DNA of 64,000 nucleotides, taken from NCBI RefSeq assembly GCF_044324875.1, contig NZ_CP172185.1; one strand, written 5' to 3'. Position 1 is the first letter of the stretch. Each line of letters starts with the position of its first letter. The notes beneath the pieces are model-generated. The model was not told the origin of the DNA and ran no database searches. It saw nothing but the letters and a program-made list of their open reading frames with translations. The stretch is from Escherichia coli. GTDB lineage: Bacteria; Pseudomonadota; Gammaproteobacteria; Enterobacterales; Enterobacteriaceae. Of this stretch, positions 1 through 16,640 are shown piece by piece. A program made the position numbers and the translations under genes.

Positions 1-411
1 TGCCATTGAAGCGGAGCGTCCCGTGCCGGAACGTTACCTCACAGCTGATACTGAGGGTTTCCGGGTCCTCTGCGAGCGATTCTGGCTGTTCGGCAGCTGC
101 ATCGAGAGTCACAGGAAGTAGCTGGGGGCTCTCTGAAGAAGGTAATAGCAGCTTTCCCTCGCGCCATTGTTGTCGCCATTTGAACAACAGATTGGCGTTA
201 ATGCCATTTTCAAGAGCAAGTTTTGAGATGGATATCCCGGGTTCACAGGAGGCAGCAACGAGCTGCTGTTTAAATTCGGGAGGATAATTAGGGCAGCCTT
301 TTCGCCTGCCGGGAGTCACATTTTTCTGCATATCTGACACTTTGGTTCCCACTACTTATTTGGTGGACACCACTTTGTCTAATTCGTCAGATTCTGACCA
401 GACGGTTCAGG
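1..411 (-). mobile_element. Partial IS3-family element. Its orfA (HTH transposase, start at 331) runs off the left window edge; a putative terminal repeat beginning TGAAC lies near 411.
   Basis: Minus-strand translation from 331 gives MQKNVTPGRRKGCPNYPPEFKQQLVAASCEPGISISKLALENGINANLLFKWRQQWREGKL..., an IS3-type OrfA HTH pattern. Family call is from recalled motifs only. Confidence 0.5.
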
Positions 412-843
412 CTGTACGCTTACTGACCTTATCGGTCACCGCGCGGATGGTGGCTGTGGAAACGCTGAAGGCATATAAATCTTCAATCTCCCGACTGATA
501 TCCTGGTAGCTCATTCCCAGCGCAAACAGGCGAATGATCTTGCGTTCGATCTCATCAGACAACGTGGTCTGGTGCTTCTTCACCAGTTGGGGTTAAAAAG
601 TACCATTACGATCGCGCGGAGTCGCCAGTTCGAAGCTACCGGTCGGGGCTTTAATGGTCTTTTTGCCGGAGCCATTTTTACGATTGGCTTCCACATCCTG
701 AGCCAGATGGGATTCAAGCTCTGCAGACAGGGCAGCCTAAGTTAACTGCTTGATTAATGACGTTAAGATTCCATCTTTGCCCGTTAATGCCTAGCCGGAC
801 TGGAGTGCCTTAAGCGCTTTATCGAAATCGAAGGGTTGGGACA
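412..843 (-). pseudogene. IS256-family (mutator-type) transposase, N-terminal ~144 codons only, with three in-frame stop codons; truncated at ~412 by the IS3-family element.
   Basis: Minus-strand translation from ATG at 843: MSQPFDFDKALKALQSG*ALTGKDGILTSLIKQLT*AALSAELESHLAQDVEANRKNGSGKKTIKAPTGSFELATPRDRNGTF*PQLVKKHQTTLSDEIERKIIRLFALGMSYQDISREIEDLYAFSVSTATIRAVTDKVS; similarity is lost below ~412. Confidence 0.55.
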
Positions 844-919
844 TGTGTCATTCCTTTTTGATTGTATATTACTGGAATGACACAGAATTTCTAACACTCC
901 CTTTTTAGATGAAATATAG

Positions 920-1705
920 TTAATCTTCGGTATGAATGTGTTGCAGCCAGTTTTTTATTACTGTATTTACTTCCTTTGCATGAGTGATATTTAGAGCGTG
1001 ATTTGCGTCGGGAATAACTTCAAGCTTGGAGTGTGCAATCACTTTGTGCATTTTAATTGCTTTCTCTAATGGGATTCCCATATCACTGTCACCATGAATA
1101 ATCAGTGTGGGGGTTGTGATTGTGTTAATTTTTTCTGAAATATCGTCACGTTCCAGCATTGCATTCATGGCATTTCTGATATTTTCTGGCTTATGTCCCA
1201 TCCATACTTTTTTCCATTTTTCTGCTTCAGAGACATTATTTCCGAAAAAAATGGGTAATAATAAGGAGATTATATTTTCCTTTATGATTGGGTCTTGCCA
1301 TCCATTACATAACTCCATGTAACTGGACGCGATTTCTGGTGGATCTTGCTCTGCCTGAGTTGCCATAAGGATTAGCCCTGACAAACGTTCTGAATGTGAC
1401 AGAGCAAATCGTAATGATATATATCCGCCCATCGACATTCCCCCTAAAACGAACTTATCCATTTGTAGTGAGTCTGCAACGCTTAAAATATCATCAACGA
1501 TATCATAGAGTGAGAAAGCTTCTGTTTTTTCAGTGTTTTTATCAAAACCCCGAACATTAATACAAACAAACCTGTGTTTTTCTTTTAGTTCGTCAAGTTG
1601 ATATTTAAACATGTCACTATTCATGAAAAATCCATGAACGAGTATGACTGGGGGATTATTTTTGTTTGTTTCAGTGTATCCAGAGTCAGCAAATGAATAT
1701 TTCAT
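920..1705 (-). CDS. Alpha/beta-fold hydrolase (esterase/lipase-like), 261 aa.
   Basis: Intact ORF with HGFFMNSDMF (oxyanion-hole region), GGMSMGG (GxSxG nucleophile elbow) and a C-terminal HGDSD motif; AT-rich context. Confidence 0.75.
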   Translation of the reverse strand: MKYSFADSGYTETNKNNPPVILVHGFFMNSDMFKYQLDELKEKHRFVCINVRGFDKNTEKTEAFSLYDIVDDILSVADSLQMDKFVLGGMSMGGYISLRFALSHSERLSGLILMATQAEQDPPEIASSYMELCNGWQDPIIKENIISLLLPIFFGNNVSEAEKWKKVWMGHKPENIRNAMNAMLERDDISEKINTITTPTLIIHGDSDMGIPLEKAIKMHKVIAHSKLEVIPDANHALNITHAKEVNTVIKNWLQHIHTED

Positions 1706-2330
1706 GGAGCCTCCTTGATTTAGATGAATATATTGTGTGTTTTGTTAGTAATAGTGAAGCATTTCATTATATTGTCGAACTAGGATATATCTGTTGGATA
1801 AATATCCGTTTTAGAGTTTTTCAAATACTCGCCAGTTAAGACTCTTTTGGTGTGTTTACCAGTCTTGAGATATTGTTGTCAAGTATTTAAAAGGATATAA
1901 ACACACTGATTTAATGCTGATACTTATATATCAATAAATATTACCGGATGCCATGGTTAAAACTGGCTTATTTACTTCAGAAGAACAACGGCTAATGGAG
2001 CGATTGAAGTATTGTGGATATACCTATGCGAAGGTGTTTATGCTCGATTGGTTTTAGCAAACACGATAATATCCGAAAATTGCCTACATGGATAGATTTG
2101 TTAATTGCTATTAGCGGATGGGTAAGATTCATTGATGAGGCGGATTGATGGGCAAAGCCCCAGCCTCACGAACTGGTGGTCTTGAAAGCTTACATATTTC
2201 ATTTATTAAAGACGTAAACGTTTTAACTGTGTGGCATAAAAAGCAGAAGAGTGAAAATCCATAAATTACCGAATTATATCGGTGCCAGTCCGAATTTAGC
2301 CTTTGCACGGTTGCACGACTCATTGACTTC

Positions 2331-2603
2331 TCAGTTCTCACTGGACATGGCGAATTTTCTGTACGTTGATGAGGGATTTTCATATATCGTACAACAGGCA
2401 TTTCTTCCCGGTATTCCCTCAAGCGCAATACATCGGGGATTTTTCTGATTAGTGCCGATCATGCATCGGTGGAAAGGGGAGGTTTGTTCAGTAAGTCAGG
2501 TGGGGATAGTACCGCCAGCATCATCGGCTTCAGACCAGTAAAAAGAGACGCGGAAAAATATACAACAGGCACCACACGTCATGCATGGATTCAGATCGCT
2601 CAT
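2331..2603 (-). pseudogene. CxxCxxCC-domain (YkgJ/UPF0153-like zinc/iron-chelating) protein interrupted by one in-frame TGA after codon 35.
   Basis: Minus-strand translation [83 protein letters not shown]...; the C-x2-C-x2-CC signature is present. Confidence 0.45.
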
Positions 2604-2780
2604 TTTTAGTACCATTTTAAAGTTTGACTTTGTATTTTTGCAACGAATCGCTAAAGAGAGCAGAAAAAACTATTCTCCAAAACTTGGTTATAACTACTTG
2701 ATTTTATAGATAGAGGCATGCTGTTTACACAGCAGTAAAAAGCATGCCAAATTTGCTATTAACCTTTTGAATATAAAATA

Positions 2781-3644
2781 CTAATCGTCTATTTCGGAAA
2801 CCTTCTTATTCAGCAGACGAGAAGCGCGCCAGTAAACCAGCAACATCAGGCCCATTACGATAGTCAGCGTAATGCTGGTGGCTGCACCAAACGGCCAGTC
2901 ACGAATATTGAGGAACTGTACCTTGATGACGTTACCGATCAGCAGGTTTTTCGCACCGCCCATCAGGTCGGACACATAGAACAGGCCCATCGCTGGCAGC
3001 ATCACCAGCAGACATCCGGCAATAATTCCCGGCATCGTCAGTGGGATAATGATGCGGATAAAGGTCTGCAACTTGCTGGCACCGAGATCGCGCGCCGCCT
3101 CAAGCAACGGCTTATCCAGTTTTTCGATACTGGAGTACAGCGGCATCACCATAAACGGTAGCAGAATGTAAACCAGACCGATAATCACCGCACTGGGCGT
3201 GAACATGATGCGAATTGGTGTATCAATAACGCCCAGCCAGAGCAAAAACTCGTTGAGATAGCCTTTGGTGCTGAGGAAAATTTTCAGCCCGTAGATACGA
3301 ATCAATGAGTTGGTCCAGAACGGAACAATCAGCAGAAACAGCAGCAGCGGACGCACCTTGTGTGGCAGCTTCGCCAGAAACCAGGCAAAAGGATAGCCCA
3401 GCACCAGGCAGGCGAGGGTGGCGATCAGCGCCATATTCAGCGAGTGCAATAGCACTTCAAAATAGAGCGGATCGAGCAGACGCGTGTAGTTATCCAGCGT
3501 AAAGACCATTTTGACGAAACTGGCGTCGTCGCGGGTCAAAAAGCTGGTGCCAATGATCATCAGGTTGGGCAGAAAGACAAACAACACAAGCCAACCGACA
3601 ATAGTGACAATCACTACATTCTGGAACTTACTTGTGTTCTTCAT
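2781..3644 (-). CDS. potB: Spermidine/putrescine ABC transporter permease PotB; the extreme C-terminus (VSEIDD) may differ from K-12.
   Basis: 287-aa ORF matching recalled PotB sequence ([29 protein letters not shown]...); overlaps potA start. Confidence 0.9.
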
Positions 3645-4764
3645 CAGCCAGTACGACCTCCCAGCTTTCTACCCAATTAATGGCCATTTTTTGGTCGAGA
3701 GAGTGGTCAAAGTCAGGATCGTCTTCATTGAAGAATTCGCTGACCATCACCATCTTGCCATTTTCCAGTTCAACAACCGACTCCAGCGTCATGCCTTTGT
3801 AGTTACGCTCGCGAACGTAACCAATCAGCCCTTCAGCGTGGTTGTCGTCGTTAATCTCTTCAACACGTAAGTCTTCCGGGCGCAGCAGAACATGCAGTTT
3901 TTGCCCCGGTTCAACGGCGAAGTTAACGTAGATATTACATTCGCGGCCTTCAACGTTGGCGCGTACGCGCTGCTCGTCTAGACGTTCGATGACAGTGGCG
4001 TTAAACATATTGATTTCGCCAATAAACCCAGCAACAAACAGGTTTTTCGGCTCTTCATAGATTTCACGCGGCGTGCCGTCTTGCTCAATGCGACCATCGC
4101 GCATCACCACAATCCTGTCCGACATGGTGAGTGCTTCTTCCTGGTCGTGAGTCACGAAGACGAATGTAATGCCAAGCTTACGCTGTAACGCTTTCAGCTC
4201 GTTCTGCATTTGCTTGCGCAGTTTGTAATCCAGCGCTGAGAGCGACTCATCCAGCAACAACAGACGAGGCTTGTTAACCACTGCGCGGGCAATGGCGACG
4301 CGTTGCTGTTGACCACCAGAGAGCTGATGCGGTTTGCGTTGAGCGAAGGTTTCCAGCTGCACCATCCGCAGGGCTTCCATCACGCGGGGCGTAATTTCAG
4401 CAGCGGGGGTTTTTTGCATGCGTAACCCAAAGGCCACATTTTCGAACACGGTCATGTGGGGGAAAAGTGCGTAGCTTTGGAAAACAGTGTTCACATAGCG
4501 GTTTTCCGCCGGAACGTGGGTGATGTCCTCGTTATCCAGCATGATGCGTCCGGAATCAACAGTTTCCAGACCTGCAATCAGGCGAAGAACGGTTGTTTTA
4601 CCGCAGCCAGAAGGGCCAAGCAGCGTGAGGAACTCGCCATTGTTGATAGTCAGATCCAGCTGGGGAATGACCTCTTTACCATCAAAGCATTTGCGAATTC
4701 CCGCCAATTGCACCAGCGGTGAAAGCGAACTCGGTTGTTTATTCAATTTTTTACTCTGTCCCAT
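3628..4764 (-). CDS. potA: Spermidine/putrescine ABC transporter ATPase PotA.
   Basis: 378-aa ORF with Walker [13 protein letters not shown] signature LSGGQQQR and Walker B LLLLDE. Confidence 0.95.
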
Positions 4765-5013
4765 GTAAACGCAACGGATGGCTTACCGATGCGGGGTTTG
4801 TGGTTAACCACCTTGGTGACTCTTAATGAGGGCGGTAATTCTACGGCAAACCGCTTGAATCGCCAATCTTTGTTGTGAATTACTGGCTTAGCTTTATATT
4901 CATTAAGGTAATGCTGATAAATATTCCCGCTTGCAGGGGTAAAAGTGACCTGACGCAATATTTGTCTTTTCTTGCTTCTTAATAATGTTGTCACAAAAAG
5001 TGAGGGTGACTAC

Positions 5014-6240
5014 ATGGATAAACTACTTGAGCGATTTTTGAACTACGTGTCTCTGGATACCCAATCAAAGGCAGGGGTGAGACAGGTTCCCAGCACGGAA
5101 GGCCAATGGAAGTTATTGCATCTGCTGAAAGAGCAGCTCGAAGAGATGGGGCTTATCAATGTGACCTTAAGTGAGAAGGGCACTTTGATGGCGACGTTAC
5201 CGGCTAACGTCCCTGGCGATATCCCGGCGATTGGCTTTATTTCTCATGTGGATACCTCACCGGATTGCAGCGGCAAAAATGTGAATCCGCAAATTGTTGA
5301 AAACTATCGCGGTGGCGATATTGCGCTGGGTATCGGCGATGAAGTTTTATCACCGGTTATGTTCCCGGTGCTGCATCAGCTACTGAGTCAGACGCTGATT
5401 ACCACCGATGGTAAAACCTTGTTAGGAGCCGATGACAAAGCAGGTATTGCAGAAATCATGACCGCGCTGGCGGTATTGCAACAGAAAAACATTCCGCATG
5501 GTGATATTCGCGTCGCCTTTACCCCGGATGAAGAAGTGGGCAAAGGGGCGAAACATTTTGATGTTGACGCCTTCGATGCCCGCTGGGCTTACACCGTTGA
5601 TGGTGGTGGCGTAGGCGAACTGGAGTTTGAAAACTTCAACGCTGCGTCGGTCAATATCAAAATTGTAGGCAATAACGTTCACCCAGGCACAGCGAAAGGT
5701 GTAATGGTGAATGCGCTGTCGCTGGCGGCACGTATTCATGCGGAAGTTCCGGCGGATGAAAGCCCGGAAATGACAGAAGGCTATGAAGGTTTCTATCACC
5801 TGGCGAGCATGAAAGGCACCGTTGAACGGGCCGATATGCACTACATCATCCGTGATTTCGACCGTAAACAGTTTGAAGCGCGTAAACGTAAAATGATGGA
5901 GATCGCCAAAAAAGTGGGCAAAGGGTTACATCCTGATTGCTACATTGAATTGGTGATTGAAGACAGTTACTACAATATGCGCGAGAAAGTGGTTGAGCAT
6001 CCGCATATTCTCGATATCGCCCAGCAGGCGATGCGTGACTGCGATATTGAACCGGAACTGAAACCGATCCGCGGCGGTACCGACGGCGCGCAGTTGTCGT
6101 TTATGGGATTACCGTGCCCGAACCTGTTCACTGGCGGTTACAACTATCATGGTAAGCATGAGTTTGTGACTCTGGAAGGTATGGAAAAAGCGGTGCAGGT
6201 GATCGTCCGTATTGCCGAGTTAACGGCGCAACGGAAGTAA
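5014..6240 (+). CDS. pepT: Peptidase T (tripeptide aminopeptidase).
   Basis: Six-frame ORF 4972..6240; start moved to [17 protein letters not shown] to give the 408-aa K-12 length. Confidence 0.93.
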
Positions 6241-6249
6241 GCGAAAAGG

Positions 6250-6273
6250 GATGCGGCATGTGATGCCGCATCC
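6250..6273. terminator. Bidirectional hairpin terminator between convergent pepT and roxA.
   Basis: Near-perfect inverted repeat GGATGCGGCAT-gtg-ATGCCGCATCC. Confidence 0.6.
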
Positions 6274-6288
6274 GGCTTAAATCCAAAC

Positions 6289-7410
6289 TTACCCTTCGAA
6301 GAACCAATACCCGCTATTGACCAGCGCCGCGAGCATCGCGAGGAATGACGGATCTTCCAGCGCATCGCCAAAATTCTCCGCAGTCAGCGCAATGTTGCTG
6401 GCGAGTGCATCCAGTGCCGGACGGTGCGGGGAATCGATCTTCTCACCATTGGCATACACGTCGTCGCCAATGCGCAATACGCGCAGACCACCCAGACGCA
6501 CCAGCACTTCACCTTGTTTCAGCGCATCGTAGATTTCATCCGGCTGATAAGGCGGCTCTGGCGGCGCGATATCCAGTTCATGGCGTGACTGGGATATAAA
6601 CTCCCCAAACCATTGCTTAAAGTGTTCCGGCTGGTTGATCAATTCGAGCATCATCTCACGCAGTTTATCCATCTCTTGCGGCAGAACATCCGCAGGATGA
6701 GCGCGAGGTGAAACATCAGGATCGCTGTAGTAGTTGCCGCCCAGTTCACGTTGCAGCACATAATCGGCAAATCCGCTAATCAGTTCCCGCGTATTTGGTG
6801 CGCGAAAACCGACGGAATAGTTCATCGCATTTTCCAGCGCGTAGCCTTCATGGGGGAATCCTGGCGGAATATAAAGAATATCGCCTGGCTCCAGTTCTTC
6901 ATCAATGATGGCTTCGAACGGATCAACCTGTAACAGATCCGGGTGCGGGCAGTGCTGTTTCATTTGCAGCTTTTCGCCCACTCGCCAGCGACGACGTCCG
7001 GTACCCTGAATGATAAACACGTCGTACTGATCGAGATGCGGGCCGACGCCGCCGCCAGGTACAGAAAAAGAGATCATCAGATCATCAATACGCCAGTCCG
7101 GTAGTTCACGGAACGGTCGCATCAGCGCGGCGGTCGGCTCATGCCAGTGGTTCACTGCCTGCACTAACAATGACCAGTTAGTTTCACCGAGATGATCGTA
7201 GCTTTCGAACGGGCCGTGGCTGACCTGCCATTTGCCATCCTGGTGGCTGACCAGTCGACTGTCGACTTCGCTTTCCATCGCCAGACCCGCCAACTCGTCT
7301 GGAGAGATCGGGTCAATAAAATTATTAAAGCCGCGTTTTAACACCACCGGACGTTTCTGCCAGTGACGTTCAAGAAAATCGGGCCAGTTAAGAGTGAGTT
7401 GGTATTCCAT
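6289..7410 (-). CDS. roxA: Ribosomal protein L16 arginine hydroxylase (JmjC/cupin 2-oxoglutarate oxygenase) RoxA/YcfD.
   Basis: ORF 6289..7419; start taken at MEYQLTLNWPDFLERHW (373 aa). Confidence 0.9.
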   Translation of the reverse strand: MEYQLTLNWPDFLERHWQKRPVVLKRGFNNFIDPISPDELAGLAMESEVDSRLVSHQDGKWQVSHGPFESYDHLGETNWSLLVQAVNHWHEPTAALMRPFRELPDWRIDDLMISFSVPGGGVGPHLDQYDVFIIQGTGRRRWRVGEKLQMKQHCPHPDLLQVDPFEAIIDEELEPGDILYIPPGFPHEGYALENAMNYSVGFRAPNTRELISGFADYVLQRELGGNYYSDPDVSPRAHPADVLPQEMDKLREMMLELINQPEHFKQWFGEFISQSRHELDIAPPEPPYQPDEIYDALKQGEVLVRLGGLRVLRIGDDVYANGEKIDSPHRPALDALASNIALTAENFGDALEDPSFLAMLAALVNSGYWFFEG

Positions 7411-7611
7411 GTTAAGCATCCACAGGCTGGTATCTGCAACCGATTATAACGGATGCTTAACGTAATGCGTGAAGTATGGGCATACTTTATCAATTAGTGT
7501 TTTTTGCCGTTTCATAATGTTTCAGGTTGTGCATTATGTTTTTGATTATAAACAAATTTGTGATTTTTCTTGTTCCAGCTTGTTTCACGTTGTAGCCCTT
7601 TGTGCAACGAT

Positions 7612-7637
7612 CGGTGTAGTTAATGGTGTAGTTAATT
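7612..7637. repeat. attL core of the integrated element: CGGTGTAGTTAATGGTGTAGTTAATT, itself a tandem GGTGTAGTTAAT duplication.
   Basis: Identical 26-mer at 18721–18746; a further ~45 bp upstream of each copy is imperfectly similar. Confidence 0.65.
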
Positions 7638-8888
7638 GTGATGACCGGATTCAAAATTATGAGCAGAGCACTTAACAAGCTGAGCGATACACAGCTAAGG
7701 AAAATCAACGGCACACCCGCCCAAAAAACAGCCTTTCTTAATGACGGTGGAAACTTGAGCGTCAGGCATTCAACCAGCGGCCTTTTAACCTGGTATTTCA
7801 CTTACAGGGCCGGAACGGGAAGGGGGGCATCACCGGAACGCATTAAGCTGGGAAATTATCCTGATCTGAGCCTGAAATCAGCCAGGGAAAAAGCCGCCCA
7901 GTGTCGCGCATGGCTGGCTGAGGGGAAAAATCCACGTCATGAGATGAATTACACCGTACAGGAAGCGTTAAAGCCTGTAACGGTTGGCGATGCGCTCACC
8001 TACTGGCTTGAGTCGTACGCAAAGGAAAACCGTGTGGATTATGACCCACTGAAAAAGCGGCTAAATAATCACGTAATACAGCACATTGGCCCTATGCCGC
8101 TGGATAAATGCGAGCTACGGCACTGGCTGGCCTGTTTTGATCGGGTGGCAAAGCAAGCCCCTGTTTCCGCCGGGTTCCTGCTACAGACATGCAAACAGGC
8201 GCTTAAGTTCTGCCGGAAGCGGCGCTATGCAATCAGCAACGTTCTTGATGATATGAGTGTGGCTGACGTTGGGAAAAAACCGGATATAGGCGAACGTGTC
8301 TTAAGTACCAAAGAACTGGGCGAATTATTGCAGGCACTGGACAAAAAAATATTTTCCCCTTACTACGTCGCACTAATCCGCCTCCTGATTGTTTTCGGAT
8401 GCCGGACAGTAGAACTGAGGTTATCGGAGATCGGCGAGTGGGATTTTACCGAAATGCTCTGGACCGTTCCGAAGGAGCACAGCAAAACGAAGGTAGCCAT
8501 ATTCCGGCCCATACCGGAAGCGATACTGCCGTTCGTCACGCAGCTGATGGAGCAGAACAGGCACACGGGCTTATTGCTGGGGGAAGTGAAACAGGAAACC
8601 AGCGTGTCGCAGTACGGCAGATTAGTGCACAGGAGGCTTAAACACCCTCACTGGTCACTGCATGACATCCGGCGCACCTTTACAACGATGCTGAACGATT
8701 TAGGCGTGGATCCTCACGTCGTGGAGCAGCTTACAGGCCACCAGATGCCAGGAATGCAGCGAGTTTATAATCATTCCCGTTATCTGGATGCGAAACGCAA
8801 TGCGCTGGATATGTGGACGGAGCGGTTAGGGATACTGGCGGGAGCACATGAAAACGTAACCACGCTACCAGTAACCAGAAGAAAATAA
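7638..8888 (+). CDS. int: Tyrosine-type site-specific integrase (P4-like family).
   Basis: Starts immediately after attL; C-terminal catalytic region ...LHDIRRTFTTMLNDLGVDPHVVEQLTGHQMPGMQRVYNHSRYLDA... (R, H-x-x-R, Y). Start ambiguous: GTG 7638, ATG 7641 or ATG 7659. Confidence 0.85.
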   Translation: MMTGFKIMSRALNKLSDTQLRKINGTPAQKTAFLNDGGNLSVRHSTSGLLTWYFTYRAGTGRGASPERIKLGNYPDLSLKSAREKAAQCRAWLAEGKNPRHEMNYTVQEALKPVTVGDALTYWLESYAKENRVDYDPLKKRLNNHVIQHIGPMPLDKCELRHWLACFDRVAKQAPVSAGFLLQTCKQALKFCRKRRYAISNVLDDMSVADVGKKPDIGERVLSTKELGELLQALDKKIFSPYYVALIRLLIVFGCRTVELRLSEIGEWDFTEMLWTVPKEHSKTKVAIFRPIPEAILPFVTQLMEQNRHTGLLLGEVKQETSVSQYGRLVHRRLKHPHWSLHDIRRTFTTMLNDLGVDPHVVEQLTGHQMPGMQRVYNHSRYLDAKRNALDMWTERLGILAGAHENVTTLPVTRRK

Positions 8889-8936
8889 TTTTTTTCGTGT
8901 TTTTTCAGTATGCGCATACTGGATAAGTGCACAGAT

Positions 8937-8970
8937 ACAACGTGAAACAATAAGCAACAACGTGAAACAA
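8937..8970 (+). promoter_or_regulatory. Two direct CAACGTGAAACAA repeats, candidate integrase arm-type binding sites.
   Basis: The same motif occurs inverted beside attL (7583–7598, CTTGTTTCACGTTG) and beside attR (18681–18700, TGTTCCACGTTGTTTCAT). Confidence 0.4.
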
Positions 8971-9262
8971 CCACGAACAAGAGGTCAAAAAGTATACAGA
9001 TTTATAAGTTGCTGATTTTTAATGCTCAACTGGTTTTTTATACATTAGCGAATAACGCTTTAAATAGTGAGAAAAAAGTCATAAAACGAGATTTTATGCC
9101 TTTGCATAATACTGAATTAAAATGATTTTTATTAAAATCACCCCGTTTCTGTAAAATACCCGCCACCAACATTTGCCAACTCTGAATCACCCTGACACAA
9201 TCAGACACATCCCAACGCAATAGAACACGAAATAACTCTTTAAGAAACGAAAGGGGGCAATA

Positions 9263-9451
9263 GTGTTAAGCACTGATCGGTTTATACGTGAAAAAGAATG
9301 CGAAAAGCTAACAGGCCTTAGCCGCTCATGCCGCTACCGCCTGGAAAAGGCCGGACAATTCCCATCACGGCGTAAGCTGGGCGGTCGTTCCGTTGGCTGG
9401 TCTTTATCCGAAGTTCTGGCATGGAAGGAAAGCTGCGAGGCAGTTCACTAA
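9263..9451 (+). CDS. alpA: AlpA-family phage transcriptional regulator / excisionase-like HTH protein (62 aa, GTG start).
   Basis: MLSTDRFIREKECEKLTGLSRSCRYRLEKAGQFPSRRKLGGRSVGWSLSEVLAWKE matches the AlpA/CP4-57 regulator pattern; sits just downstream of int. Confidence 0.75.
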   Translation: MLSTDRFIREKECEKLTGLSRSCRYRLEKAGQFPSRRKLGGRSVGWSLSEVLAWKESCEAVH

Positions 9452-9777
9452 AAAGACTGGCGGCACACAGCCGCCACCCATCCACTAATACAGAGATTTA
9501 ACCATGAAGACTGGATATACGCCCGAACAGGGGCGGGGCTTCGTTCGGCCTGGTGAAACTGAAAAACAACAAAATCGCGGTTTTTCAGGCATAAAAAAAG
9601 CGGCCCCGATAAGGAGCCGCCTTTCTGAACAATTAACCTACAGCGCAAAAAATGAATCTGAGCAGTGGGATTATATCAACCGTGCAACGAAGCGCCACAA
9701 TTGCCGGATAACGGGCAAAGAAAAGGCCACCTGTCACGGTGGCCAATGTGATCAGTGTGGTGGCTTGCTGGTGGCTA

Positions 9778-9969
9778 TCAACCTTTGGGTTCTATACCGC
9801 GCCGCTTTAGTTCAGCGCGCCCCAACTCTTTAAGCCAGTTGGCTAGGCTTATGCCGTCGCTCTGCGCTTCTTTGTCGAATTGCTCTTTTAGCTCTGGAGA
9901 AATTCGCATTCTGAATTGTGGGGATTGCCCATCACCCTTAGGGCTTTTATCACGTTTGATTGTTGACAA
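9778..9969 (-). CDS. Small ribbon-helix-helix (Arc/CopG-like) DNA-binding protein, candidate repressor, divergent from the replication operon.
   Basis: 63 aa, ...RMRISPELKEQFDKEAQSDGISLANWLKEL...; followed on the minus strand by a stem plus T-run terminator (~9590–9628). Confidence 0.5.
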   Translation of the reverse strand: MSTIKRDKSPKGDGQSPQFRMRISPELKEQFDKEAQSDGISLANWLKELGRAELKRRGIEPKG

Positions 9970-10016
9970 GTGGTCACCTATTAAATTAGCCTTTCTATTG
10001 TTAGGTGGTCACCTTA
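9969..10016. promoter_or_regulatory. Divergent promoter/operator region with two direct GTGGTCACCT repeats.
   Basis: AGTGGTCACCT at 9970 and GGTGGTCACCT at 10005, between the RHH gene start and the first gene of the rightward operon. Confidence 0.35.
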
Positions 10017-10088
10017 ACACGGGGACACTTAAAAAAGCAAAGCCCGAAGGCGCTAGGAACACCAACGGGCTTCTAACCACAAACCGTT

Positions 10089-10301
10089 ATGAGAGGTAGT
10101 TTTATGGCTGTAAGACAGCATACCCCACGACTAGCGCACACACAAACCGCCTTTGTGTGGCGTTTTCTGGCACTGAGTGCCGGAGAATCTCAAATCATCC
10201 ACGTAACCGCCTGGACGGAACGCGAAGCGCGTAGCCGTTGCCCGTCCGGTTGTGTTGCTGTATTCGCCGCCCGTATTCGTCAGGGGGTGTACCATGATTA
10301 A
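10089..10301 (+). CDS. Small protein resembling host cell-division inhibitor Icd-like proteins of P4-type satellites (weak call).
   Basis: MAVRQHTPRLAHTQTAFVWRFLALSAGESQIIHVTAWTEREARSRCPSGCVAVFAARI...; first gene of a translationally coupled operon; alternative start at 10104. Confidence 0.4.
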   Translation: MRGSFMAVRQHTPRLAHTQTAFVWRFLALSAGESQIIHVTAWTEREARSRCPSGCVAVFAARIRQGVYHD

Positions 10302-10662
10302 CCTGTCACTTACCGATCTTAACCGCGTTCAGTTTCGTGAGAAATTTACCGGACAGCTACTCGTCAATGTGGAGAACGGGCGCATAGTGCGTAATTATCA
10401 CCTGCCGGATGGTGCAATTGCCGGAAGCGTTGAAGCATTGCTGGAACTGGCGGAACGTGCGCGACTGATTAAGCCGTCAACGAGCCATCACGATGATGAT
10501 CTGCATTTTACCGGATGTATGGTGAGTCACTACGAAAACGGCGTCGAGGTATCCTGCGAACGGCTGCGTGATGATTGCTGTTTCGGCACACTGCCGGAAT
10601 TTATCGAATTGCTGACCAGTTGCGGATATCAGGTTATTCAGGGGGTGCGCCATGTGCAATAA
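10294..10662 (+). CDS. Hypothetical protein (~122 aa), satellite early operon.
   Basis: ORF with start/stop overlap to both neighbours; no recognisable motif. Confidence 0.55.
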   Translation: MINLSLTDLNRVQFREKFTGQLLVNVENGRIVRNYHLPDGAIAGSVEALLELAERARLIKPSTSHHDDDLHFTGCMVSHYENGVEVSCERLRDDCCFGTLPEFIELLTSCGYQVIQGVRHVQ

Positions 10663-11107
10663 CATCCGTCCGGACGCAGCAGGCGAAGCCATCATAACGC
10701 TAATGCACGCGCTGATTGATATTTCATGCACGGCAGCAACCGCAGAAAAACACATTACCAGAGAGCCGGAATATACAGGGGCAATAATCCCGCATTCGCT
10801 GGCCTACGCACAGCTAACCGCTGATATGGCGCTGAATGAGGCTAAAGCCATCCTGATTGCTGATTGTGAAAATGGGGGGGGGGTTATGCGTGATGATCGT
10901 TTTAATTCCCTGAAACAGGAATTTTCCGGCGTTCCTGATAATGCGGCTGATGCGCTTTCGTCAATATCTGAAATTATGCGGGTGGCTTTTTTCTTTCTTT
11001 GCACTGATGAGCACAGGGATACAGGGCTAAATATTCTTGATATCGCCGCTAATTATGCTGATTTCGTAACGGAAACTGTTTTAAGAAAAACGACGGACGG
11101 GGATTAA
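10652..11107 (+). CDS. Hypothetical protein (151 aa), satellite early operon.
   Basis: Intact ORF overlapping the upstream stop; no recognisable motif. Confidence 0.55.
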   Translation: MCNNIRPDAAGEAIITLMHALIDISCTAATAEKHITREPEYTGAIIPHSLAYAQLTADMALNEAKAILIADCENGGGVMRDDRFNSLKQEFSGVPDNAADALSSISEIMRVAFFFLCTDEHRDTGLNILDIAANYADFVTETVLRKTTDGD

Positions 11108-11108
11108 T

Positions 11109-11342
11109 ATGCGTGATATTTACCACGAAACAATAGACCGCGCATTTCTTGCACTTTCTCACAGTGAAAATATGTTGGAAATATTGCGCATATGTCTTGA
11201 AACGCTTGGAGATAATGAACGTGATAAACAGAAATCAATGATTGTCACGGCATTAATAACGCTTCTTGAGCCTGTAATAAATGAGTTGCAGGAAATAGAG
11301 ACATTACACGACCAGTATAAAGCGCCCCACACCGGAGAATAA
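11109..11342 (+). CDS. Hypothetical protein (77 aa), satellite early operon.
   Basis: Starts 2 bp after the upstream stop. Confidence 0.5.
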   Translation: MRDIYHETIDRAFLALSHSENMLEILRICLETLGDNERDKQKSMIVTALITLLEPVINELQEIETLHDQYKAPHTGE

Positions 11343-11347
11343 AAAAC

Positions 11348-11635
11348 ATGAAAAATAAAAATTCTGGCGTTAATGCCAGCGGCCCCGCTCGTCCTGAAAT
11401 CCGTCCCGGCGATATTTTCCGTGATAACTACGGCGGCACGGTAATGATTAAGGGCGTGGAAGAACGGCGCGTAACCTACCGCCGTGATGGCTACGAATAT
11501 GACTGCGTTATGCCTGTTTATCAGTTCCGGCGTGATTTCACGCTGGTGGGCCATCGTAAAGCCGTTAATCAGAAACGTGCTGCAAGTTATATCCGCAAAA
11601 TCCGTGAAATGCTGGTCGCAGGGGGTAAGAAATGA
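11348..11635 (+). CDS. Hypothetical protein (95 aa), overlaps the replication gene start.
   Basis: Intact ORF; stop overlaps the start of the next gene (ATGA-type coupling). Confidence 0.55.
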   Translation: MKNKNSGVNASGPARPEIRPGDIFRDNYGGTVMIKGVEERRVTYRRDGYEYDCVMPVYQFRRDFTLVGHRKAVNQKRAASYIRKIREMLVAGGKK

Positions 11636-13038
11636 AACTTGCACCGAACGTAAAACTGTTACCGAAAGATAAACACACTGAGGCGGTTATTTTTGCGGGT
11701 GATAATGCTCACTCCTTTGCAGAACATTACATGATTGCACAGGCCAAAAAAGCAGGCGATCCCATCCCTCCGGTTTACCTGGGCCGTTATCAGTTAAGCG
11801 AACTGGACAACTTACAGATTGTTGATGAAGGACGATACAGGGCAAAGGTCATACGCGCCGGAAACCTGGACGATATGCAGATGCTGACCATTGCCACAAA
11901 ACTGGCGATCGCCGGAGTCCAGGAGGCGCGCCTACTTTCTGAAAATTTCGAACTGCTGGAGGACTGGAGCGACCAGCTACCACGACTACGGGAAACATGG
12001 GAGAGAGGGGAAAGCCTGGTCATGAATGGCGGAAAGCGAAAAATCACACTTCCCATCTCATGGGGTTCTGAGGGATTCGATGCGCAGCAAAGCTACGTCA
12101 TTAAGGGGCTTATTCCGGCTGAGTCATTATGCAGCACCTACGGGGCCAGCGGTTCTTATAAATCGTTCCTCGCCATTTCCTGGTCGTGCCATGTTGCCAC
12201 AGGTATGGCATGGGGAGGCCGCAGGGTAAGTAAGGGTGCGGTTATCTATATCGCTGGCGAAGGCAGCATGGGCGTAAAACGCCGCGTTAAGGCGTGGGAG
12301 ATAACCCACGACAAGGTGGTTACAGATTTGTGCATCATTAACGCGCCTGTTTTCCCTGCATCGCCTGACTATGTGGAGCAGGTTATCAGGACTGCCGGAC
12401 TTGTTAAGAGCAGAACGGGCGAAAATGTGCGGCTGATTGTGATCGACACGCTGGCCCGTTGCTTTGGTGGGAATGATGAAAATGATTCCCGTGATATGGG
12501 CGCATTTATCCAGGGGTGTGACGCGATAAAGCAGGCCACAGGGGCCACGGTGCTGGTGGTTCACCATTCCGGCAAGGATGAAACAAAGGGGGCGCGTGGT
12601 TCCAGTGCATTCCGTGCCGCGCTTGATGCAGAGTACCGAATCAGCCGCGAAAATTCAGACGTTACAGCACTGGTCGCAGCATGTACGAAGATGAAGGACG
12701 CAGAGGAGCCAAAAGAGAGCGCATACGACCTTAAAAGCGTGGAGGTGTTCACCGATACAGATGGCGAAGAAATTGTGTCCATGGTGGTGATTGACGTTCC
12801 CCGCGCCCCTGCTGAACTGGAGCGCATCGAGGAGGCAGGCAACAAGACGGAAAACCATACCGCGCTATGGGGGTGCATCCGTTCACGCACACAGAACGGC
12901 GACAAGTGCACGATCCCGCTGTTACGTGATGACATGAAACGGCTTGGGTATGACGTGAAAAATATGCGGCGATGGTTAGCCAAACTGGAAAAAGACGCCG
13001 TGATTTACATTGATGGTGATGATGTAGGACCACTGTAA
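11632..13038 (+). CDS. Replication initiator / RecA-fold P-loop ATPase (RepA/AAA_25-like primase-helicase family).
   Basis: 468 aa; P-loop-like YGASGSYKSF, Walker-B-like LIVIDTLARCFGG, VLVVHHSGKDETKG; followed directly by iterons. Confidence 0.75.
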   Translation: MKLAPNVKLLPKDKHTEAVIFAGDNAHSFAEHYMIAQAKKAGDPIPPVYLGRYQLSELDNLQIVDEGRYRAKVIRAGNLDDMQMLTIATKLAIAGVQEARLLSENFELLEDWSDQLPRLRETWERGESLVMNGGKRKITLPISWGSEGFDAQQSYVIKGLIPAESLCSTYGASGSYKSFLAISWSCHVATGMAWGGRRVSKGAVIYIAGEGSMGVKRRVKAWEITHDKVVTDLCIINAPVFPASPDYVEQVIRTAGLVKSRTGENVRLIVIDTLARCFGGNDENDSRDMGAFIQGCDAIKQATGATVLVVHHSGKDETKGARGSSAFRAALDAEYRISRENSDVTALVAACTKMKDAEEPKESAYDLKSVEVFTDTDGEEIVSMVVIDVPRAPAELERIEEAGNKTENHTALWGCIRSRTQNGDKCTIPLLRDDMKRLGYDVKNMRRWLAKLEKDAVIYIDGDDVGPL

Positions 13039-13240
13039 AAAGTGAGTAGTAAAAGTGAGTAATGGTGAGGTTTTTACAAAATATTAACACAATTACTCAC
13101 TTTCTCACCTGTATACATGCTCAAAAGTGAGCAGTGAAAAAACACTTATGAAACATGCACATATAAAACACAAAAATCTCAAGTGAGACGAAGTGAGACG
13201 CTTTAAAAAGTGAGTAGTAAAAGTGAGAGATGGTGAGCAA
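13039..13240. repeat. Iteron cluster, putative satellite replication origin.
   Basis: A ~30-bp unit AAAAGTGAGTAGTAAAAGTGAG(T/A)(A/G)ATGGTGAG occurs twice (13037–13070 and 13203–13237), with about ten AAGTGAG-type motifs including tandem AAGTGAGACGAAGTGAGACG and an inverted copy. Confidence 0.55.
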
Positions 13241-13608
13241 TGAATAAAAACCGAACAGCAGGACAAAATACCGAAGGTAAATTTATGAACACTGAAATTG
13301 AAACACTGAGCATATCAACTGCCCTTCCTGGCTGGTGGGCTAAGTTCAAAGACGACGACGGCACGGAATGGTATAGCCCAATTGCTGCATGGGCGCTTTG
13401 TGATATCCACCATTTCGGCACCGGAGATACTTACCGCGAAATCTTACCCGTGCTGACCAGTGAGCTGGGCATGAGTCCGCATAGTCCTGATGAGGGAATG
13501 TGCGAGTGCCTTTATCTGCCGGATAAGAAGTTTGTTCACTGTGGTGAATCGATGGTATTTGCCTGGTATCCGGTTAACGACAGCAGCAATAGCGGTACTC
13601 TGGAGTAA
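13240..13608 (+). CDS. Hypothetical protein (122 aa; alternative start MNTEIETL at 13285).
   Basis: ORF immediately downstream of the iterons. Confidence 0.45.
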   Translation: MNKNRTAGQNTEGKFMNTEIETLSISTALPGWWAKFKDDDGTEWYSPIAAWALCDIHHFGTGDTYREILPVLTSELGMSPHSPDEGMCECLYLPDKKFVHCGESMVFAWYPVNDSSNSGTLE

Positions 13609-13611
13609 ATC

Positions 13612-13854
13612 ATGAAGGTAAACCACAAAAAGACAGATCACCGCGCCATTGACCTTACAGAGCACTGGCTGAGGGTGGCGATAAAAATCATCGACCGCAA
13701 CACGGGGGAAGGATACGCGAAAGCACATCCCGAACTGATAAGTGCATTCATGACCACAGCGGCGGCAAACTTTGCCACGCTGACAGAGCGGGATATTGCC
13801 GAAGCAGAACAGGTAACAACCATCAACGTTAAAACCAGTGAGGTGGAATCATGA
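13612..13854 (+). CDS. Hypothetical protein (80 aa).
   Basis: ORF whose stop overlaps the ssb-like start. Confidence 0.45.
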   Translation: MKVNHKKTDHRAIDLTEHWLRVAIKIIDRNTGEGYAKAHPELISAFMTTAAANFATLTERDIAEAEQVTTINVKTSEVES

Positions 13855-14261
13855 CAGCACAGATAGCGGCTTACGGGCGGCTGGTGGACGACCCGCAGGT
13901 AAAACAGACCAGTAAGGGTACACCGATGACGCTGGCGCGTATGGCGGTATCTTTACCATGCGGCCAGGCACAGGACGGACAGGCGACGTTATGGTTATCG
14001 GTCATCGCATTTGGCAAACAGGCCGACTTTCTGGCTAAACATCAAAAAGGCGACGTTGCCAGCGTATCCGGCACGATGCAGGTCAGCCAGTGGACCGGAC
14101 AGAACGGGGAAACGCGGCAGGGTTATCAGGTTATTGCAGACAGCGTAATCAGTGCCCGTGCGGCACGTCCTGGCGGGAACAGACGCAAAACCACAGGCAC
14201 ACAGGGTAATCAGCCACCAGCGGGAGGCGATGACCCTTACGGTGATGATATTCCGTTCTGA
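13851..14261 (+). CDS. ssb: Single-stranded DNA-binding protein homologue (short OB-fold) with a conserved SSB C-terminal tip.
   Basis: WLSVIAFGKQADFLAKHQKGDVASVSGTMQVSQWTGQNGETRQGYQV parallels E. coli SSB [48 protein letters not shown]; Gly/Pro-rich linker; ends ...DPYGDDIPF (E. coli SSB ends DFDDDIPF). Confidence 0.8.
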   Translation: MTAQIAAYGRLVDDPQVKQTSKGTPMTLARMAVSLPCGQAQDGQATLWLSVIAFGKQADFLAKHQKGDVASVSGTMQVSQWTGQNGETRQGYQVIADSVISARAARPGGNRRKTTGTQGNQPPAGGDDPYGDDIPF

Positions 14262-14271
14262 GGGGGTGACG

Positions 14272-14544
14272 ATGGTACATGACCGCATAGCGGAGGAACT
14301 CGAGGCAAAAGGATTTTACCGGAGGGCGGCGGCGCGATGGGGTGAAGTTATGAGGCTGGTGAGCACTGACAAGGAGCGCGAACAGGTGGCAATGCGACGG
14401 CTGGAATGTTCCCTGAAGGCACAGAGGCCACCGGAGCCGCCGGATGATTTAGGCGCTCTGAAAAGGTCAGTTAATCGCACTGAAAAACAAATGGGGATAG
14501 CTGGTATTGGCAAAGCAATATGGCGCAACTACCCGCAGAAGTGA
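14272..14544 (+). CDS. PerC-family transcriptional regulator-like protein (~90 aa).
   Basis: MVHDRIAEELEAKGFYRRAAARWGEVMRL... resembles the PerC N-terminal pattern; six-frame ORF 14152..14544 trimmed to the ATG after the ssb stop. Confidence 0.5.
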   Translation: MVHDRIAEELEAKGFYRRAAARWGEVMRLVSTDKEREQVAMRRLECSLKAQRPPEPPDDLGALKRSVNRTEKQMGIAGIGKAIWRNYPQK

Positions 14545-14550
14545 GCACAC

Positions 14551-14620
14551 AGCCGGAGCAATCCGGCTTTTTTACGCCTAAAAAAAGCCCGATAAGGTCA
14601 AAGGGGGCTTATCGGGCTTT
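14551..14620 (+). terminator. Two tandem rho-independent terminators ending the satellite replication/regulation operon.
   Basis: AGCCGGAGCAATCCGGCTTTTTT, then AAAGCCCGATAAGG-tcaaagggg-CTTATCGGGCTTTT. Confidence 0.6.
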
Positions 14621-14784
14621 TGTAGAGGAGGTTTTTTATGGTGCACTGGCACACATGATCGGGATAATCATTTCATAATTTGCAACATAACTCAATATTG
14701 TTGCGCAAAATGCAATCATGATTATAATCAGGACTGGATGAACATCCAGTTATGATTTTTTAAGTCAAAGAGGAATTTCTGACT

Positions 14785-14991
14785 ATGGCAGAAGAGAAAA
14801 AAGGCGGGGTGACGGTCTACATAAGCCCCGACATCGTGGAGGCGCTCAAGGAACGCCACCAGCAGAATGTAAAAGCAGGCATTGCGGCAGGACTTGATCC
14901 GCTGGCGATGGTTGAGCCGTCAACAGGCTGGCAGGTGCGTACCTATTTACGTGCGGCGCTGGGTATCAATCAGGTTCACGGAGGTGAATAA
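14785..14991 (+). CDS. Hypothetical small protein (68 aa), first gene of the head module (possible scaffold or assembly factor).
   Basis: ORF translationally coupled to the capsid gene; preceded by an AT-rich promoter region with palindromes TGATTATAATCA and TTGCGCAA. Confidence 0.45.
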   Translation: MAEEKKGGVTVYISPDIVEALKERHQQNVKAGIAAGLDPLAMVEPSTGWQVRTYLRAALGINQVHGGE

Positions 14992-16046
14992 TGACAGGCA
15001 AAGCAAAGGCACTTACAACTAACCAGCTTTTCGCGTACCTGAATCGCGGGGATATTTCGGAATATAAATTTAGTCCGCTGTTTACCACGCTGTTTTTCCC
15101 GAACGTGGCGACCTTCAACACCCAAAACATCATGCTGGACACCCTGGACATTGAAGAGGTTACGATGTCAGCGTTCTGTTCTCCTATGGTGGGTAGTCAG
15201 GTCCAGCGCGATAAAGGGTACGAAACCAGCACGATTAAACCAGGCTACATGAAGCCAAAGCACGAAATCGATCCAACAAAGACCATCATGCGCATGGATG
15301 GAGAAGATCCGGCACAGCTTAACGATCCAACTTACCGCCGTATGCGCCTGATTACTGGCAACATGCGCCGCCAGATAAACGCCATTAAGGCGCGCGTGGA
15401 ATGGCTGGCGGTGAATGCGGTAACGACCGGAAAAAACATCATTGAGGGCGAAGGCATAGAACGCTATGAAATCGACTGGAAAATACCGGAAAACTGCATC
15501 ATACAGCAGGCCAGTGGTAAAAAATGGTCCCAGCAGGATAAAGACATGCACGACCCAATCTATGACATCGAGCTTTATGCTGATCAGGCAGGTTGCCCCG
15601 CCAACGTCATGATTATGGGCGGTGAGGTATGGCGCACATTACGCAGCTTTAAAAAATTCCGTGAACTGTACGATCTTTCCCGTGGATCAGAATCCGCCGC
15701 CGAGCTGGCCTGTAAAAACCTGGGCGAAGTGGTGAGCTTTAAAGGCTATCTTGGTGATCTGGCCCTTATCGTCTATTCCGGCAAATACACTGACAGCGAC
15801 GGGACCGAAAAATATTTCCTTGAGCCTGATTTGCTGGTCCTGGGTAACACCAACAATAAAGGGCTGGTGGCATATGGTGCGATTATGGATCAGGAAGCGG
15901 TAAGAACGGGCGCAACGCAAAACATGTACTACCCGAAAAACTGGATTGAGGACGGCGATCCGGCGATTGAGTACGTGCAGACGCACAGCGCACCGCAGCC
16001 TGTACCGGCAGATATTCGCAAATTTGTTACCGTCAAAATTGCTTAA
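14991..16046 (+). CDS. Phage lambda gpE-family major capsid protein homologue.
   Basis: 351 aa; collinear matches to recalled lambda gpE: FSPLFTTLFFP vs FDPLFLRLFF, PGYMKPKHEIDP vs PGYVKPKHEVNP, DPTYRRMR vs DPAYRRRR, VSFKGYLGDLALIVYSG vs VSYKGMYGDVAIVVYSG, YYPKNW vs RYPKNW. Confidence 0.85.
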   Translation: MTGKAKALTTNQLFAYLNRGDISEYKFSPLFTTLFFPNVATFNTQNIMLDTLDIEEVTMSAFCSPMVGSQVQRDKGYETSTIKPGYMKPKHEIDPTKTIMRMDGEDPAQLNDPTYRRMRLITGNMRRQINAIKARVEWLAVNAVTTGKNIIEGEGIERYEIDWKIPENCIIQQASGKKWSQQDKDMHDPIYDIELYADQAGCPANVMIMGGEVWRTLRSFKKFRELYDLSRGSESAAELACKNLGEVVSFKGYLGDLALIVYSGKYTDSDGTEKYFLEPDLLVLGNTNNKGLVAYGAIMDQEAVRTGATQNMYYPKNWIEDGDPAIEYVQTHSAPQPVPADIRKFVTVKIA

Positions 16047-16057
16047 CGGGGGATTCT

Positions 16058-16393
16058 ATGGACGCTCCATACATTGAGTTATTTTCAGGCAGCCAACAGG
16101 TATCCACGACGCTGGTACATTTTGCCGCTGATGCTGGCGTTATTCAGGAATTTACCCCGCTGATGCTGGCAGACAATGGCGAGTTTAAGCCGTGGGATGG
16201 TAAGGAATCTGGCAAGGCTGTTTATCTGACCTCGTACCCTGTGGACACGTCAAAGCAGAAATCAGCACAGTGTTACAAGACGGGGATATTCAATATTGCC
16301 GCCGTTAACTGGCCTGACAGCGTCGACACCGATGCGAAAAAATGCGCCGCCTTTGCGGGTTCCGGCGTATCCGTTCAGCCGCTGGCCCGATAA
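16058..16393 (+). CDS. Phage lambda gpD-like head decoration protein homologue.
   Basis: 111 aa; FTPLMLADNGEFKPWDG / KTGIFNIAAVNWPDSVDTDAKKCAAFAGSGVSV parallels lambda gpD MTPLMLDTSSRKLVAWDG / [34 protein letters not shown]. Confidence 0.7.
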   Translation: MDAPYIELFSGSQQVSTTLVHFAADAGVIQEFTPLMLADNGEFKPWDGKESGKAVYLTSYPVDTSKQKSAQCYKTGIFNIAAVNWPDSVDTDAKKCAAFAGSGVSVQPLAR

Positions 16394-16467
16394 GCAGGGG
16401 GAACGATGGCACAAACCAGGGCGATGACGGCGACATCTATCGCATACTGAAAACCATCTGAGACAAG

Positions 16468-16491
16468 GCCGGAGAAATCCGGCTTTTTTTG
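16468..16491 (+). terminator. Rho-independent terminator after the head genes, just upstream of cos.
   Basis: GGCCGGAGAAATCCGGCTTTTTTT; near-identical to the 14551 terminator. Confidence 0.55.
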
Positions 16492-16499
16492 CGGGTCCT

Positions 16500-16640
16500 T
16501 TCCGGCATGTGGACCCGTTACGGGGCGTCGACCTCGCACGTTTTCGCTATTTATGAAAATTTTCCGGGAAAAAGCATGTCAGTTCTTCTTGTTATTAACA
16601 TATTGTTTTTAAAGAAATAACTATCAAGAAAGAAACGACA
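16500..16640. other. Lambda-type cohesive-end site (cosQ/cosN/cosB-like); predicted 12-nt overhang region GGGCGTCGACCT at 16523–16534.
   Basis: GTTACGGGGCGTCGACCTCGCACGTTTTCGCTATTTATGAAAATTTTCCGG is near-identical to the lambda genome ends (GTTACG|GGGCGGCGACCTCGCGGGTTTTCGCTATTTATGAAAATTTTCCGG); a downstream GAAAGAAACGACA resembles a lambda cosB R site. Confidence 0.8.

Follow-up and report, generated by a model that had tools for sequence, protein, structure and literature searches.

Phage 21 and e14 integrate in the 3' end of the host gene icd, where the substitute 3' end provided by the phage keeps the gene open with a slightly altered C-terminus. In E. coli, the potB/potC junction is a listed insertion site for prophages and Stx phages, whose described occupants include PP_potB in O157:H7 clade 8 and O145:H28 strains, prophage 5 (potC) in O157:H7 strains from UK outbreaks, and the Stx phages found at potC in LEE-negative STEC (PMC8065619, PMC10925052, PMC9997748, PMC7067040). 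Occupation of potB/potC by a prophage is an ordinary situation. In this study, we analyzed a stretch of 64,000 nucleotides of an E. coli genome (contig NZ_CP172185.1; hereafter, the window) in which potB is followed by AT-rich DNA carrying traces of insertion sequences. An earlier, sequence-only reading of the window had proposed that this foreign DNA replaced potC and potD and that the spermidine-preferential uptake system had thereby been lost. Our data indicate instead that positions 425–2812 are very likely the attR end, comprising tail and cargo, of a lambdoid prophage residing in the 3' end of potB. The window covers no more than the final ~2.4 kb of the element, a part that lacks phage structural genes and an integrase.

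The locus resembles the known lambdoid prophages at potB/potC in several respects. These include the same insertion site and core, a terminal YkgJ-family gene of the same kind, and the published tendency of these elements to vary by replacement, by deletion, and by the insertion of IS elements. The orientation, with int beside potC and the tail-and-cargo end facing potB, would also be the same. It differs from them in its cargo, which here consists of an alpha/beta hydrolase and an IS256 remnant, whereas that of the known prophages consists of T3SS effectors such as EspK, NleG, or EspW, and in having an extra copy of ISEc8. Unlike the Stx phages at this site, no stx gene is visible in the prophage end that the window covers. 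The host lineage also differs, as it was absent from the set of complete E. coli genomes that we searched, the nearest of which were 98.5–98.9% identical in the flanking core genes. The principle known from phage 21 and e14, with an att site within the 3'-terminal part of a host gene, appears to apply here too, although the host gene and the integrase specificity differ. A further difference from icd is that the potB site is internal to an operon, and integration there would cut off potCD, which lie downstream, from the promoter of that operon.

Coordinates of the features at the potB locus in the window.
Feature	Position	Strand	Remarks
ISEc8 (IS66-family), outer end	1..424	-	100% identical to ISEc8; continues beyond the left window edge
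tnpA of ISEc8, first 110 codons	2-331	-	Within 1..424
IS256-family transposase remnant	425..901	-	Interrupted by ISEc8; profile match and megablast
Alpha/beta-fold hydrolase, intact	920..1705	-	ORF of 261 aa; prophage cargo ("moron") gene
AT-rich non-coding spacer in prophage end	1706..2276	.	G+C 0.349; no ORF with a family match
YkgJ-family (CxxCxxCC) cysteine-cluster pseudogene	2277..2603	-	Usual last gene of these prophages
Phage arm of attR	2604..2799	-	From alignment of window, K-12 attB, and ECA64 attR/attL; close relatives likewise
Phage-supplied substitute potB 3' end	2781-2798	-	Codons SEIDD and stop; part of the attR phage arm
att core, 13 bp	2800-2812	-	TGAATAAGAAGGT in the potB reading direction
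potB, intact, with phage-derived C-terminal tail	2781-3644	-	287 aa
potA, intact	3628-4764	-	First operon gene; its overlap with potB is also present in other E. coli
pepT	4972-6240	+	
roxA	6289-7419	-	

Alignment of the window with K-12 revealed where the host DNA ends. Nucleotide identity stops at 2799/2800, within a Val codon, and the sequence-only reading, which had suspected a junction in the last six codons of potB, was right to within one base. The alignment of the 2600–2800 region with the K-12 potB-potC region that it had suggested placed the break in the 3' end of potB and showed that the two potB ends differ. The protein ends in NKKVSEIDD-stop in the window and in NKKVELE-stop (RLLNKKVELE-stop) in K-12, that is, with the tail VSEIDD versus VELE. 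The break coincides with the att core, and the nearest IS sequence ends at ~901. The core, TGAATAAGAAGGT, is the sole stretch common to attB of K-12, attR of the window, relative L009, and E. coli ECA64, and attL of relative L061 and ECA64. When K-12, the window, ECA64, and L009 were aligned, the attB, attR, and attL sequences parted ways on the expected sides of this core, attL reading ...CACCTTATGAATAAGAAGGTGGAACTCGAATG. The last 196 bp before the junction had a G+C content of 0.30, and window positions 2538–2795 gave an 82% match to the last ~250 bp in records of Stx1a-converting prophages.

On the host side of the junction, the G+C content was 0.51 from potB to roxA. PotB of the window scored 552 bits against the NCBIfam PotB equivalog (cut-off 348), and the exact protein occurred in 1,895 collection blocks, with lambdoid tail genes next to it in all 10 places listed. 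The cargo ORFs of the roxA island had no PADLOC or NCBIfam match.

That the DNA beyond potB is foreign, AT-rich, and IS-scarred, as had been described, was borne out by its G+C content (0.37 over 902–2799) and by the presence of ISEc8 and the IS256 remnant. The hydrolase gene is indeed intact, and the matches of its product to alpha/beta-hydrolase families all fall short of the curated cut-offs. The identical protein was found in 284 collection blocks and adjoined potB in all 10 places listed, while prophages at prfC and zinT have homologues (87–92%) flanked by tail-fibre genes on one side and by the junction with the chromosome on the other. The neighboring YkgJ pseudogene is colinear with, and 70% identical over 109 codons to, an intact YkgJ-family gene beside potB in ECA64. 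An in-frame TGA is present in this CxxCxxCC gene as had been noted; however, there are two (2496–2498 and 2331–2333) rather than one, both of which recur in four relatives. Selenocysteine at these codons was considered and rejected, as the intact homologue has Ser and Gly there; the change of a conserved Cys to Tyr also counts against it.

The product at the left edge of the window had been taken for an IS3-family orfA, but is an IS66-family TnpA. Positions 1–424 match the ISEc8 of E. coli UTAK-1 without a difference, the RefSeq annotation is IS66-like TnpA, and the product scores 87.2 bits against NCBIfam NF047595 IS66 TnpA (cut-off 74). The relatives L008–L017 all cease aligning at 424 and go on with IS256-remnant sequence; by this comparison, the ISEc8 insertion is specific to this genome and not in those relatives. 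The call of an IS256-family transposase remnant held. A 58-aa ORF at 407–583 on the minus strand, which crosses the ISEc8/IS256 junction, matched NF033543 IS256 (profile positions 54–108 of 338, E 1.7e-9), the megablast match to IS256-family elements extended to query position 901, and the continuation of the remnant in relatives was called Pfam Transposase_mut. An exact look-up of the 58-aa ORF returned no record, and scans of the species-representative genome collection for the exact ISEc8/IS256 junction and for the exact attR junction gave no match either. The many other genomes returned by an exact look-up of the PotB variant did not include one bearing ISEc8.

Searches with K-12 PotC and PotD (tblastn and blastn) found neither potC nor potD anywhere in the 64-kb window, the only match being a weak paralogous one of PotC to potB itself, so that their reported absence downstream of potB extends to the entire window. 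Two further assemblies, which have the same hydrolase, YkgJ pseudogene, and attR junction and are 99.1–99.6% identical to the window, showed where these genes lie. In each, the contigs were followed across a lambda-like prophage of 52–53 kb, linked by lineage-specific truncated proteins. In JBNPQR010000002.1, which is 99.6% identical to window positions 424–7490, the order from potB is the YkgJ pseudogene, hydrolase, IS256 remnant, DinI, a YadA-like gene, and tail fibre genes. These are followed by J-I-K-L-M-H-T-G-V, head genes, terminase, lysis genes, Q, and replication and immunity genes, and the far end consists of exoVIII, xis, int, and potC-potD-ymfA-ycfZ-cobB. The distance from the potB stop to the potC start is 53,015 bp in this assembly and 52,023 bp in the second. 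In these relatives, PotC is identical to that of K-12 at 264/264 residues and PotD at 346–348/348. In relatives L061 and L056, a 372-aa protein with Arm-DNA-bind_1 and Phage_integrase domains is followed by intact potC and potD, and in ECA64 a 57-kb arrangement runs potC-int-xis ... tail fibre-YkgJ-potB, with the integrase likewise beside potC. Replacement of potCD by the foreign DNA is, thus, not supported, as both genes are intact beyond the prophage in two near-identical assemblies. We infer that the far end seen in the relatives is also that of the source genome. Based on that comparison, potC and potD of the source genome have very probably not been lost, but lie ~50 kb away.

This arrangement is very likely explained by site-specific recombination of a tyrosine integrase at the 13-bp core, four codons before the potB stop. 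The phage brings a short substitute 3' end, which leaves potB open but with VSEIDD in place of VELE as its tail, and potC and potD would remain joined to the other prophage end (attL, beside int-xis), ~50 kb to the left of the window. The visible end, whose alpha/beta hydrolase and decayed YkgJ gene are cargo typical of a right arm, bears the scars of an IS256-family element and, in this genome alone, of an ISEc8 insertion.

To place the junction in context, we note that the contiguous potB-potC junction, or empty site, was found in 3,800 of 5,426 complete E. coli genomes, as well as in K-12, and that the junction was split in ~1,625 of them (~30%). The 7,055 matching places in total fit with essentially all split genomes having kept both halves. 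By arithmetic, only one half is present in ~8 of the ~1,625, for example in strain 94_0962. The phage-side junction type of the window is shared by 653 complete E. coli genomes. Since genomes with a split junction nearly all keep both halves, the proposed loss of the spermidine uptake system did not find support either.

A true loss of potCD through an IS-mediated deletion, leaving a strain without its spermidine-preferential transporter, would nevertheless be in keeping with the IS debris, the ISEc8 unique to this genome at the left edge, the lack of both genes in 64 kb, and the few split genomes that show one half only. We consider it improbable, as potB breaks exactly at the phage att core and not at an IS end, and the IS elements are 1.9–2.4 kb off the junction. 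In addition, potCD were intact past the prophage in all near-identical relatives that could be followed, and the potC half is kept in nearly all genomes with a split junction. The window does start inside an ISEc8 that is absent from the closest relatives, and an ISEc8-mediated deletion or inversion further to the left is possible for that reason.

The part of the element within the window has no phage structural gene, and the hydrolase, cysteine-cluster pseudogene, and IS remnants are not phage-specific by themselves, as might be expected if a non-phage genomic island or an IS-composite element had inserted after potB. This origin is very improbable, however, because in the relatives the block is contiguous with a full lambda-like set of tail, head, lysis, Q, replication, immunity, and int-xis genes, and because lambdoid prophages at other att sites have homologues of the YkgJ-family and hydrolase genes as their terminal genes. 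A chimeric join at ~2781–2800 of potB to unrelated AT-rich DNA would produce the abrupt change in composition, but nothing else speaks for such an assembly artefact. The same junction, base for base, is present in independent assemblies from several sources (L008–L017 all agree, and L014 shares 99.97% identity with L016 across 11.3 kb) as well as in the 653 complete genomes, making an artefact scarcely credible. The end of a lambdoid prophage in potB is, thus, the reading that we favor.

With such a prophage in place, the question arises of how potCD are expressed in lysogens. Simple scans of the interval between int and potC in a relative found neither a sigma-70-type consensus promoter nor, on the coding strand, a terminator-like site. 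At attL, an ATG that derives from the phage opens a mini-ORF, MNKKVELE-stop, which terminates at the native ATGA overlapping the start of potC, and the phage might conceivably preserve the translational coupling of potC in this way. In the source genome, potCD are presumably still expressed. It is conceivable, though we think it unlikely, that potCD have been uncoupled from the potA promoter and that spermidine uptake depends on transcription from the int-xis end or, in a narrower variant, that ISEc8 deleted potCD along with the remainder of the prophage in this genome only. If true, the uncoupling would link the uptake of polyamines to the state of the prophage in ~30% of E. coli genomes. The apparent loss of half of a transporter operon, as seen here, is what is normally found when a prophage att site inside that operon is occupied, and calls of missing potCD near the edges of contigs or windows, whether automated or made by eye, need to be checked against the potB site.

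The order of potB, potA, pepT and roxA in the window was as in annotated E. coli comparators. The sequence-only reading had observed that neither potC nor potD (potCD) lies downstream of potB, and this holds: K-12 PotC and PotD used as queries located neither gene in the 64 kb (PotC gave, as expected, a weak paralogous match to potB alone), and G+C content leftwards (downstream) of potB was 0.30–0.37 vs 0.51 across potB-roxA. That reading took the AT-rich DNA to have replaced potCD, a loss that would disable spermidine-preferential uptake. Instead, this DNA is very probably the attR end of a lambdoid prophage, the end adjoining potB, whose attachment site is in the potB 3' end.

To map the junction, the window was aligned with the uninterrupted K-12 potB-potC site (attB) and with both insertion ends in ECA64, an E. 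coli with a prophage at the same site. K-12 identity ended at window 2799/2800, within the last potB codons, where a junction had been correctly suspected. The only stretch common to all four aligned sequences was the 13-bp TGAATAAGAAGGT (potB direction), at window 2800–2812. Across the breakpoint, attB reads CTGAATAAGAAGGT then GGAACTCGAATGATCGG, the ATG therein being the potC start; the window attR reads CTGAATAAGAAGGT then TTCCGAAATAGACGATTAG; and attL in relatives, the opposite end beside int and potC, reads CACCTTATGAATAAGAAGGT then GGAACTCGAATGATCGG. Thus, potB acquires five codons and a stop from foreign DNA, and the potC start and the ATGA overlap stay with the other end of the insertion. 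The breakpoint lies at a core common to attB, attL and attR, and the flank is of phage origin. By alignment, the window PotB C-terminus, VSEIDD, differs from that of K-12 (RLLNKKVELE, then stop). The 287-aa PotB with this tail had an exact match in 1,895 blocks of the collection, and lambdoid tail genes followed it in 10 of 10 places among the matches listed.

This prophage end has decayed and carries IS scars. Its contents had been described almost correctly, except that the CxxCxxCC gene, a YkgJ-family pseudogene, has two in-frame TGA codons rather than one, and that the supposed IS3 orfA at the left edge is an IS66-family TnpA. The pseudogene was colinear with an ECA64 gene (70% identity), and window 2538–2795 gave an 82% match to the final ~250 bp of database sequences of Stx1a-converting prophages. 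The alpha/beta hydrolase is a typical right-arm cargo gene; homologues (87–92%) sit in prophages at prfC and zinT, with tail fibre genes on one side and the junction with the chromosome on the other, and the exact protein occurred in 284 collection blocks, with potB adjoining in 10 of 10 places among the matches listed. The window starts within ISEc8, and prophage DNA is visible there only on the potB side of this copy. At 424 the ISEc8 terminal inverted repeat stands where every relative, no longer aligning with the window, continues with the remainder of the IS256-family remnant and dinI. As the relatives have no ISEc8 at 424, the copy is a later insertion in this genome.

Coordinates of features in the window
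Feature	Position	Strand	Remarks
ISEc8 (IS66-family) TnpA end	1-424		100% identity to ISEc8; 87 bits vs NF047595 (cut-off 74 bits)
YkgJ-family (CxxCxxCC) pseudogene	2277-2603	minus	in-frame TGA codons at 2496-2498 and 2331-2333
potB	2781-3644	minus	ORF; 552 bits vs NCBIfam PotB equivalog (cut-off 348 bits)
potA	3628-4764	minus
pepT	4972-6240	plus
roxA	6289-7419	minus
Tyrosine integrase	7638-8888	plus	roxA-phoQ element
RepA/AAA_25-like helicase	11632-13038	plus	roxA-phoQ element
SSB-like protein	13851-14261	plus	roxA-phoQ element
Four terminal ORFs	14991-16046, 16058-16393, 16711-17295, 17537-17935		end of roxA-phoQ element

An occupied attachment site at potB is the ordinary picture and has been described already. 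Stx-phage insertion sites include potC (PMC8065619), O157:H7 outbreak strains carry “Prophage 5 (potC)” (PMC10925052) and O157:H7 clade 8 strains “PP_potB” (PMC9997748), and in O145:H28 prophages at potB show frequent replacements and deletions (PMC7067040). In ECA64 the potC-to-potB stretch is a 57-kb lambdoid prophage. Going from potC, int and xis come first, then the exonuclease, immunity and replication genes; Q, the lysis genes and terminase are next, and the head and tail genes, J and the tail fibre genes precede a 109-aa cysteine-cluster protein of the YkgJ family, beside potB. The same arrangement was found in other genomes with different cargo adjoining potB, for example EspK and ISEc8 in UTAK-1, and NleG and EspW in 94_0962. 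When a 301-bp query spanning the intact K-12 junction was searched against 5,426 complete E. coli genomes, 3,800 had it uninterrupted and the other ~1,625 had it split. The 7,055 matching places in total, vs 3,800 + 2 × 1,625 = 7,050, fit nearly all split genomes keeping both halves; by arithmetic from the match counts, only ~8 had a single half. Strain 94_0962 (NZ_CP074791.1), with its NleG/EspW effectors on the prophage end, was among the few in which the potB half alone was found. The window's phage-side junction sequence was shared by 653 complete genomes.

The absence of potCD from the window might still reflect their true loss from this genome, but that is very improbable, as potCD are displaced and intact in near-identical relatives. 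Two draft assemblies were 99.97% identical to window 424–11705, and others 98.6–99.6%. One contig at 99.6% (JBNPQR010000002.1, GCA_053151275.1) was traced along its length by exact look-ups of lineage-specific proteins. Read from potB, it carries the YkgJ pseudogene, again with both TGA codons, then the hydrolase, the IS256 remnant and DinI. Next come genes resembling sigma-70 region 4 and YadA, the tail fibre genes, and lambda-like J, I, K, L, M, H, T, G and V, with the head genes and terminase after them. An IS3-family element has inserted in the lysis genes that follow, and an IS21 element near Q; after Q are the genes for replication and immunity, then exonuclease VIII, xis and an integrase of 372 aa. 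Beyond the integrase lie potC, potD, ymfA, ycfZ, cobB, nagK and lolE. The potB stop and the potC start were 53,015 bp apart in this contig and 52,023 bp apart in a second assembly, GCA_027274645.1. In the relatives, PotC was identical to K-12 at 264/264 residues and PotD at 346/348 or 348/348, without stops.

A second integrative element (window 7638–18800) was observed between roxA and phoQ. Its relatives also have AlpA-like and DUF4222 genes, and its four terminal ORFs had no NCBIfam or PADLOC match. In O157:H7, roxA is a prophage or integrative-element site (PMC10925052). The core genes potAB, pepT, roxA, phoPQ, purB and icd (window 2700–7400 and 18827–26891) reached at best 98.5–98.9% identity among the 5,426 complete RefSeq genomes, whereas drafts at 99.97% are on record; the window is therefore from an Escherichia lineage absent among the complete genomes searched. 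Across the whole window, Rfam gave a single match above its gathering score, to the sRNA C0299 (49954–50032, 107.7 bits).

Integration of the lambda type is recombination between attP and attB at the core by a tyrosine integrase, and phages using an intragenic site often bring a replacement for the end of the gene; phage 21 and e14, which use icd, are examples. The altered six-residue tail would leave potB functional, and potCD would still be expressed. At attL (15150–15280 of L061, the locus from a near-identical relative; 780–950 of the equivalent ECA64 locus, L004), a phage-side ATG in the potB frame creates a short reading frame, the mini-ORF MNKKVELE, whose end lies in the native ATGA overlap with potC and which could maintain potC translational coupling after integration. 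The upstream phage arm is, in addition, similar to the 3' end of potB. Simple scans between int and potC, which lie 166 bp apart in the same direction, gave no sigma-70-like promoter and, on that strand, no terminator-like site. Together with the mini-ORF, these features make it plausible that potCD are transcribed by read-through from the int region with translational coupling preserved.
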